NCBI GenBank assembly: GCA_045863295.1
Contig: BTWA01000012.1
Coordinates: forward strand, 32,001 to 96,000
Reading direction: 5' to 3'
Length of the DNA stretch: 64,000 nucleotides
Source of the DNA: Candidatus Hydrogenedentota bacterium
GTDB lineage: Bacteria; Hydrogenedentota; Hydrogenedentia; Hydrogenedentales; SLHB01
The notes under the pieces were generated by a model, which was not told where the DNA came from, did no database searches, and was given only the letters and a program-made list of their open reading frames with translations. A program made the translations under genes and the position numbers. Shown one piece after another: positions 44,479 through 48,307 of the stretch; position 1 is the first letter of the stretch; each line of letters begins with the position of its first letter.

Positions 44479-44528
44479 ACAGTGATGGGTTACTTAGAAC
44501 AAATCAAGACACCTCAAAAACGTGCAGG

Positions 44529-45515
44529 TTAGACCTGTCCGGGTTCGCGAGGGTCCCCCATTTGAGGACGATTGCGTTTGAACCAAATGGCGGTCCCCAC
44601 AAGTCCTCCTACGATTAAGGAACCAACACCAATCCACTGAGATGTAGACAAACCGAATGCACGATTGGCTTCGACAAGGGGGGCTGCGTCAAGGACAACT
44701 CGCATCAATCCATATAAGACAAAAGTCAGTGCGAAAGTGGCACCCGGTGCTCGAATGCATCGGTAGAAGATCTCAACCGTCACCCAGAGTACCAGCCCCG
44801 CGGTCGTGTAGGCAATTGGCAAGGGAAACACCGGCATCGTTCGGTTCTTTTGAGCCATCAGCAGTGCCTCTTCACGTGTCATGCCGTGCGTGACGAGATG
44901 GCGTTTTAATGCGAGCGGCAGGCGGGAGTCGTCCATTGCAAGCAAAGCGACATGACAAATTGGAATGCGTTTCCCGTCTTCCAGCGAGAGCAGAAGCGGA
45001 TCTGGAGGATCGAGCATTCCCAACGCGTACTGACGGTTGTAAACGATGCTGCCAAACGGGTACGTGATGCCAACCGCCGGCCTACATTCGATCCCCGCGC
45101 AACATCCAGACGACAGACATGCAAATTTCGCCACGGCAATCGAAATAAAGATTGACGGCGCCAATGCATCAAGGTAAGTCAGAGATTTCGACCCAAAGAA
45201 CAGGACGTAACTAAACAAAATTACAGATGAAAACGCGAGAAAGATGGAAATGGAATACGGCGCTCGCGCAAAAGGAGAAAGCAGTGCCCATTCAAACCTG
45301 GGAGACGATCCGGAACTCAAGTCATGTACAATTCGCCCAGCCAGCCAACCGGCCACAATTGCAATAATAAACCCAGGAACCAATTTGCCAACGTCGATTT
45401 CCCGCCGCCGGGTACGGCCAATTAACGTGGCAACGCCTGCCAGTGCCGCCAAGAGGATGAAGAACGGATAAGCATTCACATCCATCCGGCCTATGGATAG
45501 GAGTACAGGTTGCAC
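44529..45515 (-). CDS. Lgt-family membrane protein with degenerate catalytic motifs
   Basis: Lgt-like N-terminus MQPVLLSIG...AY, GR, DALAP, GCCAG, YGLMR, STSQ. The HGG, GR and HPxQLYE motifs are replaced. Confidence 0.75.
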   Translation of the reverse strand: MQPVLLSIGRMDVNAYPFFILLAALAGVATLIGRTRRREIDVGKLVPGFIIAIVAGWLAGRIVHDLSSGSSPRFEWALLSPFARAPYSISIFLAFSSVILFSYVLFFGSKSLTYLDALAPSIFISIAVAKFACLSSGCCAGIECRPAVGITYPFGSIVYNRQYALGMLDPPDPLLLSLEDGKRIPICHVALLAMDDSRLPLALKRHLVTHGMTREEALLMAQKNRTMPVFPLPIAYTTAGLVLWVTVEIFYRCIRAPGATFALTFVLYGLMRVVLDAAPLVEANRAFGLSTSQWIGVGSLIVGGLVGTAIWFKRNRPQMGDPREPGQV

Positions 45516-45616
45516 GGGCTGGCTGGGCGAAATGCCGTCATTGCCGGGATTCAGGTTTTGCTATCAACACGAATACTGAAACCCAAACAAGACGGTGCAA
45601 TGCATGCCCAATCTTG

Positions 45617-45772
45617 TCAGTGCGTTAAGGCGTTGTAGCATTCGCCCCAGCCCGGCGTCGGATATTCCACAGGCACATCATCTGCATACGATACCAAGGC
45701 CGGTGCAAACAGGGTGGCAACTATGGCGACCGCGGCCGCCCACCAGATCACGCGCTTCGAAAACCGTTTCAT
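45617..45772 (-). CDS. 51-aa secreted peptide precursor (below the ORF-track cutoff)
   Basis: AAGGAG RBS 8 nt before ATG. Translates to MKRFSKRVIWWAAAVAIVATLFAPALVSYA-DDVPVEYPTPGWGECYNALTH*, a textbook Sec signal peptide followed by a short tail. Confidence 0.8.
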   Translation of the reverse strand: MKRFSKRVIWWAAAVAIVATLFAPALVSYADDVPVEYPTPGWGECYNALTH

Positions 45773-46103
45773 TTCCTGTTCTCCTTGCTTTCTTGCCTTG
45801 CGACCTGCAAGACATATTTGTGGCGCACTCCGGCTCGGGATGTGGACTGCGTAAGTGCATTACCAACATTTCACGTGCCGGAACATACGCGCAATGGATG
45901 CAGACGAAAGCGAATGGGAGAGAATGCGTTCTCACTCGCAGCGCTTACAACCGGTACCGAATATACAGGCACAAGCCTTAAGCGTGTCCAACGTGTACAA
46001 ATACATGGGGTTTGAACGAGGCTGGAGCCCGAAAGGTGACGTCCACTCGAGTCCAATCAGCCGACGCCAAACGAGAAGCAACTGCAACAACCAGGATTTA
46101 ATC

Positions 46104-46132
46104 ACTTTATCAATAACCATTCATCTTGTCAA
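46104..46132 (-). promoter_or_regulatory. Strong sigma70-type promoter facing the peptide/Lgt-like genes
   Basis: TTGACA-17 bp-TAAAGT with extended -10 TG. Confidence 0.7.
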
Positions 46133-46250: not shown

Positions 46251-46733
46251 TCAAGTCAGAATCGAAGGTAGTGAGTCCGGGGCTCCCTCTACCAAATTGC
46301 GTATGCCGTCAATAGAGGAAAGGCCTCTCTTTTCGCCAATGCGGCTCATGATCCATGCCAGACATTTCAACCAAAATGGAATGGGAGCATTCGATATGCA
46401 CAATTCATGACGCAATCTTACTTGCTTTCCATTTTCAAGAGCATCCAGATGAAATGTCTCATCCACGTGGCGGCCTTTGTGCGTTGATTCAAGTATATAC
46501 CGGAAAGTAATTCTGATTCGCGGATCCAACGCCACCACTTCGCAGGAGGCCCTTGAGGCAGGTCCGGACATCTTGAACGTGGCACTGAACCGGAGTCCGT
46601 TGTATGCCTTCGTCCCCCGAGCGTCGCAGGCAACACACTTGTGATTCCAGAGCGGCATTAACTCTACGTCTTCCAGAACGGACCAGACGCGATCAGGACT
46701 GCCTGAAATGAAGCCCTCGTCATAAAGCACCAT
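46251..46733 (-). CDS. SRPBCC (polyketide cyclase/START) family protein
   Basis: ISGSPDRVWSVLEDVELMPLWN and a C-terminal helix IDGIRNLVE. Confidence 0.75.
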   Translation of the reverse strand: MVLYDEGFISGSPDRVWSVLEDVELMPLWNHKCVACDARGTKAYNGLRFSATFKMSGPASRASCEVVALDPRIRITFRYILESTHKGRHVDETFHLDALENGKQVRLRHELCISNAPIPFWLKCLAWIMSRIGEKRGLSSIDGIRNLVEGAPDSLPSILT

Positions 46734-46756
46734 TTCGAGAATTGTCACCGTTGTAG

Positions 46757-47938
46757 TCAGTTCAATACCGATGGATCCCAAATGGTGGCGCCAATATACC
46801 GTTCGGGACCGGTCGTTGCATCGTTGAAGTAATACACGACAACCACTTTTCCATCAGGGCGTTGCACGCTTCGTGGATAGCCGATGTCTCGACTTGCGCC
46901 GTCCTTGCGCAGGACGATTTCTTTACCCCAGGTTCTACCGCCGTCGTCGCTCAACTTGGCGCACATGGAGAAAGGTTCCGCCCTGTATCCATAGGTCAGA
47001 CAGAGGCGGCCATCTTTCAGTTTGATTAAGCTGGGAGGGTTTCCTTCGCCCAGTGTTTCCATTGGGTCGTTAGAGTACGTCCATGTCTTGCCGTTATCGG
47101 CGGAGTGATAGGTCGAATTAAAGCGGCGATCAGGCGTGCGCACGCGCACGACACTCACCAATTCAGTTTCGGACAACCGAACGCTTGAGGGCATAATGGA
47201 GAATTCGTCAATCTCAGGCCCGATGAACGAGAGAAATTCCCACGATTTCCCGCCATCGGTTGTGCGCATGCAGAAAGGCCGGCCCTCCCGGCCATTGCTT
47301 TTGGCCGCGGTCGAAAAGACGGTGCAAATGCCGGGTCCATCCACAATATAGTCGGTACGAGCCGCGGTGCCCTGCAAATCAAAGTTGGGGAGACGAAATG
47401 GGCCTTGCCAAACATGGCCTCGATCATAGGAGTAGTAAAACCGAGACACCCCCGCATGAACGCTGTTCATGCGCGTGGTAAAGGCAAAATCCGGATGAGT
47501 AAAGTCAATTCCTCCCGGGCATTCTTCCAGCGGTGGAATGGCGACTCCTGGAATCTCCGTGCCATGCAATGAATCGCCTTCAGGCATCAGCATGCCCTTG
47601 GAGTTCGGATCTTCAATCGCCCAACTCTCCCCGCCATCTAGGCTTCGGGCGAGCATGTGCCGTTCTGGTTTGTCGCGGTCGATGTGATGACGATCTCCCA
47701 GGTTCAGATAGTGACCTTTGCTAAATCCCACCAGGATTTCGTTGCCCCAAATCCATATGCCATGGTTGGCGGGCCAACCACCAAACATGCCCGGCTCGTA
47801 ATAGACTTTTACATGAGATGCCTGCACGGGTTCACCTTGCGCCTGCTCCTGTCCGTAGGAGGCGCATGCCAAGAATACGATCCAAATGACTAATGACAAG
47901 ACATCGTAGCGGACAAACGAACGCATTGAGGTCGGCAT
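46757..47938 (-). CDS. Secreted BNR/Asp-box (sialidase-like) beta-propeller hydrolase
   Basis: Signal peptide; five Asp boxes (SLDGGESW, SYDRGHVW, TTDGGKSW, SADNGKTW, SDDGGRTW); DIGYP. Confidence 0.85.
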   Translation of the reverse strand: MPTSMRSFVRYDVLSLVIWIVFLACASYGQEQAQGEPVQASHVKVYYEPGMFGGWPANHGIWIWGNEILVGFSKGHYLNLGDRHHIDRDKPERHMLARSLDGGESWAIEDPNSKGMLMPEGDSLHGTEIPGVAIPPLEECPGGIDFTHPDFAFTTRMNSVHAGVSRFYYSYDRGHVWQGPFRLPNFDLQGTAARTDYIVDGPGICTVFSTAAKSNGREGRPFCMRTTDGGKSWEFLSFIGPEIDEFSIMPSSVRLSETELVSVVRVRTPDRRFNSTYHSADNGKTWTYSNDPMETLGEGNPPSLIKLKDGRLCLTYGYRAEPFSMCAKLSDDGGRTWGKEIVLRKDGASRDIGYPRSVQRPDGKVVVVYYFNDATTGPERYIGATIWDPSVLN

Positions 47939-48307
47939 GTGCGGCTCCTGGTTGATGGAACAGCATCGTACTGGGGCGGGAGCACCTCCTTCAAGGTCAC
48001 CGTAACCGATTGTGTACGAGTCCAATTGTGACCTCAGGTCGCGCGTGCGCGGGCCATGTCATTCGATGGTCTGTCGGTTTGGAGGTATACGGCTAGAGTG
48101 GGCAGGGTTTCATTCAAGCCCAGAGTACGGTGACGTAATCCAGGAGTATCGCCTGACGTTACGGACTATTTCGCCGAATGGTGAGGGCTACAACCGCGTA
48201 CCGATAACTAGCAAATAGGTCACCATGGAATGCGATGCACAATAATCGCCTCCATCCACTCGAATCACACGCGGGTGTGTCTCGTTTGTACCGGCAAGAT
48301 AATTCTT

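Follow-up and report, generated by a model that had tools for sequence, protein, structure and literature searches.

What does a relative of the prolipoprotein-modifying enzyme Lgt do when the gene just upstream of it encodes a short peptide with a signal sequence, a single Cys and no lipobox? Lgt is a housekeeping enzyme, and an antibiotic target, that transfers a diacylglyceryl group to the Cys thiol of substrates bearing a signal peptide, and the known rule for choosing these substrates is the lipobox. The locus that raises this question lies in a window of 64,000 nucleotides of a Candidatus Hydrogenedentota genome (the whole stretch of DNA that was analysed), where all the relevant features are on the minus strand:

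46104-46132, minus strand: promoter-like sequence TTGACA-17-TAAAGT with a TG before the -10 element, 10 of 12 positions matching, about 330 nt upstream of the start of the small open reading frame (sORF)
45781-45786, minus strand: Shine-Dalgarno sequence AAGGAG, 8 nt 5' of the ATG of the sORF
45617-45772, minus strand: sORF of 51 aa, stop included in the coordinates, reading MKRFSKRVIWWAAAVAIVATLFAPALVSYA (signal) followed by DDVPVEYPTPGWGECYNALTH (tail)
45683-45772, minus strand: putative signal or leader, sORF residues 1-30, with a basic n-region, a 23-aa hydrophobic stretch containing LFAP, and S-Y-A at -3 to -1
45620-45682, minus strand: putative tail or core of 21 aa, DDVPVEYPTPGWGECYNALTH, net charge -4, whose only Cys is Cys45
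45516-45616, minus strand: 101-nt spacer that separates sORF and LGT-like gene
44529-45515, minus strand: LGT-like gene, 328 aa, GTG start, member of a distinct LGT subfamily
45093-45128, minus strand: altered Lgt signature K130-F-A-C133-L-S-S-G137-C138-C139-A-G141, aligned to R143LGN146FINGE151LWG154 of Escherichia coli
44525-44537, minus strand: weak terminator-like hairpin of 5 pairs, followed by a T-run, overlapping the LGT-like gene's stop codon

The preliminary description of this locus had reported a 51-aa sORF with an AAGGAG ribosome-binding site, no lipobox and a single Cys at position 7 from the C-terminus, and all of these are present (the codon of Cys45 is at 45638-45640). It had also placed a co-oriented gene with the Lgt fold 101 nt downstream of the sORF, which we confirmed by the matches of its product to the Pfam LGT family (PF01790; 46.4 bits for a cutoff of 24.9, residues 3-304, and 45.5 bits in the scan of the whole genome) and to the E. 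coli Lgt structure 5azb. The GTG start is backed by residues 1-10, which can be aligned both to homologues and to the N-terminal end of E. coli Lgt. The near-consensus promoter exists as described, but such sites are no more frequent than expected by chance, with 3 in the 2.1-kb region against 1.9 +/- 1.4 in shuffled sequences, and the site at 46104-46132 is only suggestive. The same region contains 4 terminator-like hairpins for 2.7 expected, which is not significant. The spacer has a minimum free energy of -30.4 kcal/mol (z -1.47) and an equally stable fold was obtained in 12 of 200 shuffles, so there is no evident attenuator in these 101 nt; in other loci of the subfamily, the distance from the sORF to the enzyme gene is about 45 to 150 nt. 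No Rfam family matched between 44300 and 46400, a range that includes the long leader of the sORF. Two of the 24 sequencing runs are of RNA type: X10, which is probably DNA and has contigs covering only 44488-44906, and X22, with a single contig of 161 nt at 45356-45525 that is inside the enzyme gene and has an odd back-joint. Sequence variants were not seen in runs X2 or X4.

One could read these observations as those of a chance reading frame, or of an unrelated small gene beside a spare Lgt paralogue, given that the promoter-like site does not exceed chance and that the contigs of both X10 and X22 fall outside the sORF. This explanation is effectively refuted by the recurrence of the sORF. 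First, one to five co-oriented sORFs are found directly upstream of the enzyme gene in all 9 subfamily loci with upstream DNA, even though the other enzymes are only 29-39% identical to the one of the window. These loci are the pair in the window, a second pair in the same genome, one in each of four other Hydrogenedentota genomes (one of them labelled Nitrospirales), one in a MAG labelled Planctomycetales and two in metagenome contigs; the sample is small, with three genomes from one genus and two loci from one genome, and it covers the genomic context of about half of the 15 subfamily clusters, with none from the representatives P0004-P0012, P0014 and P0015. Second, the homologous sORFs start with ATG in 10 out of 10 cases and have GGAG within 25 nt upstream in 8 out of 10. 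Third, a profile of the family recovered peptides that were not used to build it at E-values of 3.8e-15 and 7.2e-11 in a search of 5.8 billion proteins. Fourth, the co-location of peptide and subfamily enzyme is exclusive. Among the 163,273 frames of the genome, the peptide profile matched only the two LGT-adjacent sORFs (the next best match had an E-value of 0.93), it matched once in genome G135, and across 149 loci, which include more distant LGT loci, there was no match with an E-value below 0.4 outside the subfamily. The recurrence of the pairing, as a pattern in the sequences, is far above chance because it is found in 9/9 subfamily loci. The check proposed at the outset, a scan for such peptide genes upstream of the homologues, was positive in all 9 loci. 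The gene is not unannotated everywhere: some public Hydrogenedentes MAGs list homologous peptides as "hypothetical protein".

The pair seems to be self-sufficient. We found no conserved neighbour gene for a transporter, protease, exporter, kinase or regulator beside it, and the flanks differ from locus to locus. The idea of a dedicated two-gene unit is therefore strongly supported: the pairing holds in 9/9 loci, two genomes searched in full have no further copy of the peptide, and conservation does not extend to any other neighbour. The unit is rare, since the subfamily is present in 5 of the 135 genomes that represent the phylum, one of them G000, and in at least 1 of the 401 sampled genomes of the phylum of G135, this one being G135 itself (with the scoring limited to five candidates in each genome). 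Pattern scans in collections of genomes and metagenomes only added L022, L070 and L071 as full members.

The 15 peptides of the 9 loci have a basic N-terminus, a signal of the form W.WY..GLFAP..A.A and a variable, mostly acidic tail. Three residues (L21, F22 and P24) are invariant in the 10 aligned peptides, where A30 reaches a conservation of at least 90%. The tail cannot be aligned, save for the Cys, its only invariant residue, which is present once in 14 of the 15 peptides and twice in that of L070; the probability of having at least one Cys by chance in the tails of the 9 loci is about 8e-6. According to the simple rules used to assign signals and cleavage sites, the Cys is 9-39 residues past the predicted site, the lipobox [LVI][ASTVI][GAS]C is absent from the end of the signal in all 15 peptides, and the residues at -3/-1 are small (A-x-A type) in 15/15, which suggests that signal peptidase I removes the helix. 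Close pairs of orthologues show conservative changes in the tail or, past the Cys, limited divergence, and in G011 there are five tandem copies of the peptide gene for one enzyme gene. As far as can be read from the sequences, a peptide in which the signal is conserved, the tail hypervariable and the Cys invariant is built like a substrate of the Lgt type or like a RiPP precursor.

Bacteriocin/immunity and pheromone loci are known to have the gene of a secreted peptide next to that of a polytopic membrane protein. The same layout, with variable peptide genes in tandem, raises the alternative that the peptides are effectors of this kind secreted by Sec, and that the LGT-like protein confers immunity to them or is their receptor, and transfers no lipid to them. 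We regard this as improbable. The net charge of the tails is negative in 11 of the 15 peptides, zero in 3 and positive in one, unlike that of typical cationic membrane-active bacteriocins; exporters, kinases and regulators are not conserved nearby; and PADLOC gave no match for either the peptide or the LGT-like protein (a search of the protein atlas with the peptide gave no usable match either). It also leaves unexplained why the sole invariant residue of the tail is of the type that Lgt modifies.

If the peptides are substrates, one should ask whether the protein next to them is still an Lgt. It is far below the NCBIfam equivalog cutoffs (TIGR00544, 16.7 against 118.9; NF000778, 54.2 against 334), and the predicted AF2 model (pLDDT 83.9, pTM 0.80) keeps the seven-TM Lgt fold, with 5azb as the sole match in the PDB with E<=0.001 (E 1.9e-6, probability 1.00, TM 0.58/0.66). 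A profile search of the full library of 1.84 billion representative proteins delimits a subfamily of 15 clusters, set off from other proteins by a gap in score from 237 to 146 bits. In the altered signature, K130, C133, G137, C138, C139 and G141 are invariant in the 19 subfamily sequences, which means that all 19 have Lys130 at the position of Arg143 of E. coli. Glu243 of E. coli is replaced by Asp, the HGGL/arm-2 and HPSQLYE blocks are absent (the stretch aligned to HGGL reads S-x-T/S-x-F), and the head, of about 80 aa, is remodelled. On the other hand, the equivalents of Y26, D129, G154, Y235 and R239 are kept, with Y16, G141 and R272 (for Y26, G154 and R239) invariant and Y268 (for Y235) at least 90% conserved, and there are 19 invariant residues altogether. 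The fold, the kept residues and the invariant positions argue for a working cavity.

The preliminary description had called this homologue non-canonical, which holds for the Lys at Arg143, the lost blocks and the new head, but not for the GC..GCC cysteines, which are normal for the Lgt of this lineage. That the cysteines in place of N146 and E151 might be new to the catalysis was considered and rejected: the high-scoring Lgts of the genome read GRIGCFLNGCC[FY]G. From the alignments, the true departures from Lgt are the change of Arg143 to Lys, the loss of HGGL and HPSQLYE, and the new head. H103 of Lgt is described as "poorly conserved" (PMC13251419), and its position is Q or Y in high-scoring Lgts of the same genome, so that the absence of HGGL is only weakly diagnostic. 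H103GGL/arm-2 is the proposed site of the lipobox peptide. The regions where the subfamily departs from Lgt (arm-2/H103 and head) are those reported to determine the specificity of Lgt for its protein substrates (PMC13251419).

Co-folding, another of the checks proposed at the outset, predicted that peptide and protein bind each other, with a median score of 0.61 (0.44, 0.71 and 0.61 in the three runs) against 0.01 for the best control. The runs share at least 69% of the contacts and the pLDDT of the partner is at least 58. In the calibration of the tool, 116 of 157 solved complexes and 2 of 215 mismatched pairs reached this mark, figures that are only roughly valid with custom alignments. Peptide residues 6-31 are placed on enzyme residues 10-57 (TM1/TM2), where the predicted error is lowest for the signal helix, and the stretch 40-50 of the tail, with Cys45 in it, lies against S80-P81, G155 and the insert of the head at 176-203; the confident tail contacts listed do not include K130, C138/C139 or R272. 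This supports, at the level of a structural model, the binding of peptide and enzyme. Within the peptide, conservation is highest and docking best in the signal helix, which would be lost upon cleavage by signal peptidase I. The suggestion that the protein is a membrane receptor for the mature peptide therefore fits less well, and the same contact, mostly made by a helix that the mature secreted peptide would lack, speaks against the effector alternative.

We favour the explanation that the peptides would be dedicated substrates of the LGT-like protein, docked via their signal helix and S-lipidated on the tail Cys, a chemistry that we infer and a reading to which we give a probability of roughly 45%. 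The module would be self-contained, with a dedicated Lgt paralogue and its precursor peptide or peptides, and could work as follows: 1) the peptide would enter the membrane via Sec, its N-terminus staying cytoplasmic and its tail becoming periplasmic; 2) the conserved signal helix, W.WY..GLFAP..A.A, would serve as a leader-like recognition element docking on TM1/TM2; 3) the remodelled arm and head would bring the lone Cys of the tail to the lipid-binding cavity; 4) a lipid group, by analogy diacylglyceryl from a phospholipid, would be passed to the Cys thiol; 5) signal peptidase I would then cut after A-x-A; and 6) the product would be a short, mostly acidic peptide with a lipid anchor near its C-terminus rather than its N-terminus. 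Such a product could tentatively stand for a new class of ribosomal lipopeptides, possibly defined by a dedicated Lgt paralogue, a Sec signal used as leader, a glycerolipid on a non-lipobox Cys near the C-terminus and cleavage by signal peptidase I.

A number of arguments go against lipidation. First, the Lys at the site of Arg143 is invariant, and R143A, R143E and R143K of E. coli Lgt are reported to be inactive (PMC4728403); to this one may add the loss of HGGL and HPSQLYE. Second, the Cys is predicted to be 9-39 residues past the cleavage site, and so would not be at the membrane surface like a lipobox Cys. Third, Mao et al. (PMC4728403) describe the "front cleft" at TM1/TM2 as the entry of the phospholipid and propose that the lipobox peptide uses the side cleft at TM3/TM7, whereas the predicted complex has the helix at the front cleft, not at the side cleft, and tail contacts without K130, C138/C139 and R272.

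These arguments bear on another explanation, in which the peptide is a small single-pass membrane protein serving as subunit or regulator, its LGT-like partner has another target or is a pseudoenzyme, the helix is a TM-TM interface, and the Cys engages in a disulphide or binds metal instead of accepting lipid. It would account for the helix being both the most conserved part of the peptide and the one docking on TM1/TM2, for a change at Arg143 that is reported to inactivate the E. coli enzyme (PMC4728403), and for the invariant, periplasm-facing C133, C138 and C139, which could pair with the peptide Cys. Yet up to five divergent genes with hypervariable tails per enzyme gene would be unusual for a stoichiometric subunit, the small residues at -3/-1 in every peptide point to the loss of the helix, the cysteines of the enzyme are common to ordinary Lgts of the genome that have no such peptide, and a dead enzyme would not be expected to keep 19 residues invariant, those equivalent to R239 and Y235 among them. 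We find this explanation unlikely, although less so than that of secreted effectors.

The pattern of pairing suggests a peptide-lipidation system not previously described; in the literature searched, mostly outside subscription journals, we found no description of an Lgt paralogue linked to non-lipobox peptides. If the paralogue is wedded to lipobox-free Cys-peptides, then the Lgt fold would have been recruited for dedicated peptide modification. This would reveal a second, lipobox-independent substrate logic for the fold and a new bacterial route to peptide lipidation, would extend the idea of diacylglyceryl-lipidated ribosomal peptides to systems with their own transferase and a different anchoring topology, and might provide a compact two-gene tool, made of signal/leader and enzyme, for site-specific lipidation of peptides. 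The natural variants, with Lys for Arg143 and no HGGL, could help to probe which residues of Lgt serve catalysis and which serve the choice of substrate. Were the peptide a subunit instead, the Lgt family would gain its first known small-protein partner.

How does this module compare with known systems? It shares with generic RiPP logic a conserved N-terminal region, a hypervariable core, one to five precursor genes upstream of one enzyme gene and a predicted binding of the leader. It differs from it in that the "leader" is a Sec-type signal, the enzyme of the putative modification sits in the membrane, faces the periplasm and belongs to the lipoprotein pathway, and there is no dedicated protease or exporter. 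The closest concept is that of DAG-RiPPs, small ribosomal signal-bearing peptides with an S-diacylglyceryl group on a conserved Cys, which, as described (Proc Natl Acad Sci 2026, PMC13056109), have a canonical lipobox/signal peptidase II signal, rely on the housekeeping Lgt/LspA/Lnt, receive their lipid at the new N-terminal Cys and are defined by an MNIO (ChrH-like) modifying enzyme encoded in the cluster. Compared with that account, the system of the window has in common the membrane-anchored ribosomal lipopeptide, if the lipidation that we infer takes place, and differs by the lack of a lipobox, by residues of the A-x-A type at -3/-1 in 15/15 peptides, by a Cys near the C-terminus, and by having neither an MNIO nor another conserved enzyme, its sole conserved partner being the dedicated Lgt paralogue. 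Within the genome itself there are four other LGT paralogues, all matching PF01790 above the cutoff:

contig C6, 59010-59825: LGT paralogue
contig C27, 15079-15831: LGT paralogue
contig C5, 208320-209069: LGT paralogue
contig C27, 17283-17915: LGT paralogue

They have in common with the enzyme of the window the cysteines of the GC..GCC signature, but three of the four keep GRIGC, W.GG..F.GG and HP(S/T)QLY, which the latter does not, and for all four there is neither a hydrophobic Cys-peptide sORF upstream nor a match to the peptide profile. Finally, the active site of Lgt faces the periplasm (PMC4728403), and both E. coli Lgt (PDB 5azb/5azc, PF01790) and the enzyme of the window would act there on, or with, a signal-bearing partner polypeptide with a conserved Cys. 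The two have the same seven-TM fold, belong to the same Pfam family and share the equivalents of Y26, D129, G154, Y235 and R239. They differ in that the enzyme of the window is below the equivalog cutoffs, has Lys for Arg143 and Asp for Glu243, has no HGGL/HPSQLYE and carries a different head, while its peptide partner has, in place of a lipobox, an A-x-A site of the signal peptidase I type and a Cys 9-39 residues downstream. They also differ in genetic organisation: the gene of the subfamily is linked to its own peptide genes, whereas the housekeeping lgt is not.

The 51-aa sORF reported in the window is present as described, with an AAGGAG ribosome-binding site 8 nt ahead of its ATG and a single Cys at position seven counting from the C-terminus, and an LGT-like gene does follow it 101 nt downstream in the same orientation.

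45617-45772, minus strand: 51-aa sORF, sequence MKRFSKRVIWWAAAVAIVATLFAPALVSYA/DDVPVEYPTPGWGECYNALTH
44529-45515, minus strand: enzyme gene, 328-aa ORF with a GTG start, 101 nt downstream of the sORF

The promoter proposed at 46132-46104 exists as a site, with 10/12 consensus matches and a TG ahead of the -10 element, but it is not in excess over chance and carries little weight, because shuffling the region yields 1.9 +/- 1.4 sites of this kind and the region itself holds 3. No Rfam family matched the sORF leader or the sORF-enzyme spacer, and the spacer folds no better than shuffled sequences (z -1.47). Just upstream of the pair lies an SRPBCC/polyketide-cyclase-like ORF (176 aa, 46251-46781, minus). 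It shares 25 nt with the end of a BNR/sialidase-like ORF (422 aa, 46757-48025, minus), which carries a hydrophobic segment at its N-terminus; neither ORF is conserved with the pair. Window DNA was found in sludge and bioreactor metagenomes. The only metatranscriptome contig at the locus comes from run X22 (45356-45525) and is 161 nt long, at depth 3.3. It has a joint that 'goes back 170' within the enzyme gene's 5' end, which, seen in this contig alone, is probably an artefact of assembly.

The enzyme scores above the Pfam LGT cutoff (46.4 bits against 24.9) and far under every NCBIfam Lgt equivalog cutoff (e.g., 16.7 against 118.9 for TIGR00544). Its AF2 model is confident (pLDDT 83.9, pTM 0.80), and the only significant structural match of the model is E. 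coli Lgt 5azb (E 1.9e-6, TM 0.58/0.66). With a profile of its subfamily, a divergent LGT group, 15 of 1.84 billion representative proteins scored at least 237 bits and the next one 146 bits, a gap which shows that the subfamily is small and sharply bounded. The window's own genome encodes six PF01790 genes, three at 150-206 bits, one at 70 and two at about 45-55, the two lowest-scoring being the window enzyme and a paralog on contig C6. This Lgt complement is unusually large, which suggests that several of the paralogs are substrate-specialised. The two genes on contig C27 are divergently oriented and 1.4 kb apart.

PF01790 genes of the window's genome, by contig (206 to 45 bits)
C6:59010-59825
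C27:15079-15831
C5:208320-209069
C27:17283-17915
C6:113561-114478
window 44529-45515

When this genome was searched with the single peptide, the best non-self match fell immediately before the C6 paralog, in a frame that forms a 65-aa sORF of like design (..LFGPSLLSHA/DETDD..LEECLAELEAAGLEV) 85 nt ahead of the enzyme gene. This second pair (C6:113501-114821, loci L008/L014) has a 331-aa enzyme 34% identical to that of the window, a very acidic peptide tail (net -14) with the Cys within LEECL, and flanks formed by a MoaE/ThiF/rhodanese fusion and a GFO/IDH/MocA oxidoreductase. Upstream sORFs, which the preliminary description had proposed to seek at homologs of the enzyme, were found in all nine subfamily loci with fetched upstream DNA (13 sORFs altogether): the window, C6, genomes G011, G034, G118, G053 and G135 (locus L022, a Planctomycetales-labelled MAG), and metagenome contigs L070 and L071. 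The sORFs start with ATG in 10/10 cases checked, with GGAG at most 25 nt upstream in eight of these. The largest array observed is that of G011 (locus L011, contig G011:C52), where five sORFs in tandem (about 525-1409) precede the enzyme gene (1501-2454), and R-C-(P/V) surrounds the Cys in four of the five. The MAG of the G053 locus (L021, CAZLII010000368.1 = G053:C368) is publicly labelled 'uncultured Nitrospirales', in disagreement with its placement in the genome collection, which is the order of the window's Hydrogenedentota genome.

Coincidence as an explanation of this pairing is, in our judgement, highly improbable. First, among all 163,273 frames of the window's genome the peptide profile matched the two LGT-adjacent sORFs only (next match E 0.93), and it had a single match in G135. 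Second, it gave nothing at E<0.4 outside subfamily loci in 149 fetched loci, including about 124 more distant LGT genes. Third, no strongly hydrophobic upstream sORF was found at the other four LGT paralogs of the window's genome (15-residue hydropathy maximum at most 1.49), and the same measure reached 2.27 and 2.40 upstream of the two subfamily genes. The flanking genes differ at every locus (ThiF/MoaE, GFO/IDH/MocA, TM198-like, GH31, C-type lectin, GGDEF regulator, methyltransferase, esterase, sulfatase, FAD oxidoreductase, HAD, SDR, SRPBCC, BNR), so the conserved unit consists of the sORF(s) and the enzyme gene; the two-gene unit claimed at the outset is real and conserved, with 9/9 loci paired and no constant neighbour. 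The unit is also rare: in 5.8 billion proteins the peptide profile found 11 clusters only, which add peptides P0152 and P0160 and of which the named ones are 'hypothetical protein' of Candidatus Hydrogenedentes, and the subfamily occurs in 5/135 genomes of Candidatus Hydrogenedentota (including the window's), in 1/401 sampled genomes of the phylum of G135 (G135 itself) and on the two metagenome contigs.

Judged by simple sequence rules (basic start, hydrophobic stretch, -3/-1 residues, lipobox), all 15 peptides begin with 1-5 Lys/Arg, continue with a hydrophobic stretch of 17-25 residues bearing conserved W.W(Y/W) and (G/A/T)LF(A/G/V)P, and have small -3/-1 residues (Ala or Gly at -1) that fit signal peptidase I; a lipobox was found in 0/15. 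The invariant L-F-x-P of the peptide alignment (residues 21-24, window 45701-45712) ends the hydrophobic region about where a lipoprotein signal has its lipobox L-x-x-C, with Pro in place of Cys; that it is a lipobox vestige or the recognition motif of the enzyme is pure speculation. The tails (16-41 residues) are unalignable apart from one Cys, which is the only one in 14/15 peptides (L070 has two) and is followed by 1-11 residues; the probability of a Cys in the tails of all nine loci by chance is about 8e-6, given a genome Cys frequency of 1.39%. Tail net charge is negative in 11 peptides, neutral in three and positive in one. The tails of one close ortholog pair differ by V/I and S/T changes only and those of a second pair diverge after Cys-Gly, so that the tail sequence too is under constraint. 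A rival reading, in which the peptides are secreted effectors and the Lgt-like protein serves as their receptor or confers immunity, we regard as improbable.

Co-folding, which the preliminary description had suggested, supports, without proving, binding of the peptide by the enzyme: with enzyme and peptide alignments the median was 0.61 (runs 0.44, 0.71, 0.61) against 0.01 for the best control, the runs had at least 69% of contacts in common and partner pLDDT was at least 58. In a calibration that is rough for self-made alignments, the mark was reached by 116/157 solved complexes and 2/215 mismatched pairs. The signal helix (residues 6-31) is predicted to lie on TM1/TM2 of the enzyme (residues 10-57), and tail residues 40-50, including Cys45, to contact the invariant S80-P81, G155 and the subfamily-specific head (176-203). 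Such docking would be non-canonical, because Mao et al. (PMC4728403) describe TM1/TM2 as the 'front cleft' of phospholipid entry and reserve the TM3/TM7 side cleft for the lipobox peptide. Binding of this kind could also be that of a small-protein subunit or regulator, which seems to us unlikely.

We favour the reading that the peptides are dedicated substrates of the subfamily enzyme, with a probability of about 0.45. In this process 1) the peptide would be inserted via Sec; 2) its conserved signal helix would be recognised in the manner of a leader; 3) the remodelled head would present the tail Cys; 4) this Cys would be S-lipidated, by analogy with Lgt; and 5) signal peptidase I would cleave, leaving a short acidic peptide with a lipid anchor near its C-terminus. 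The putative lipidation chemistry is plausible, and we infer catalysis, donor lipid, acceptor site, cleavage and biological role. The remaining probability goes to mechanisms we have not thought of. Two features are real obstacles to the substrate reading: Lys stands in place of Arg143, and the Cys lies at a distance from the membrane. By an alignment to 5azb and by 19 subfamily sequences (E. coli numbering from PMC4728403 and PMC13251419), the subfamily keeps Y26 (window Y16), D129 (D116), G154 (G141), Y235 (Y268) and R239 (R272), has an invariant Lys (K130) for R143 and Asp (D276) for E243, lacks the H103GGL/arm-2 and HPSQLYE blocks, and has a different periplasmic head (about residues 157-240). 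R143A/E/K are all inactive in E. coli Lgt (PMC4728403), and arm-2, H103 and the head reportedly set protein-substrate specificity (PMC13251419). We rejected the GC..GCC cysteines (E. coli N146 and E151 positions) as a catalytic novelty, because the genome's own high-scoring Lgts (C6:58950-59879 and the C27 and C5 paralogs) read GRIGCFLNGCC[FY]G, with Cys at both positions; they also have Q or Y at the position of H103, which like N146 is reportedly essential in E. coli Lgt (PMC4728403, PMC13251419). Fetched LGT genes from Actinomycetota, Chloroflexota and Bacillota carry the GCC motif as well.

No account of an Lgt paralog associated with peptides that lack a lipobox was found in the literature searched (few subscription journals, main texts without supplements). 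Among known enzymes Lgt comes nearest. Both Pfam and the fold place the window protein in the Lgt family, but it does not qualify as an Lgt equivalog: it scores under the NCBIfam cutoff, lacks Arg143 and HGGL, and is paired with peptides that have no lipobox. The closest system is the DAG-RiPPs (PMC13056109), which combine a canonical lipobox, housekeeping Lgt/LspA/Lnt and an MNIO enzyme, and from which the sORF-enzyme unit differs in all three respects.
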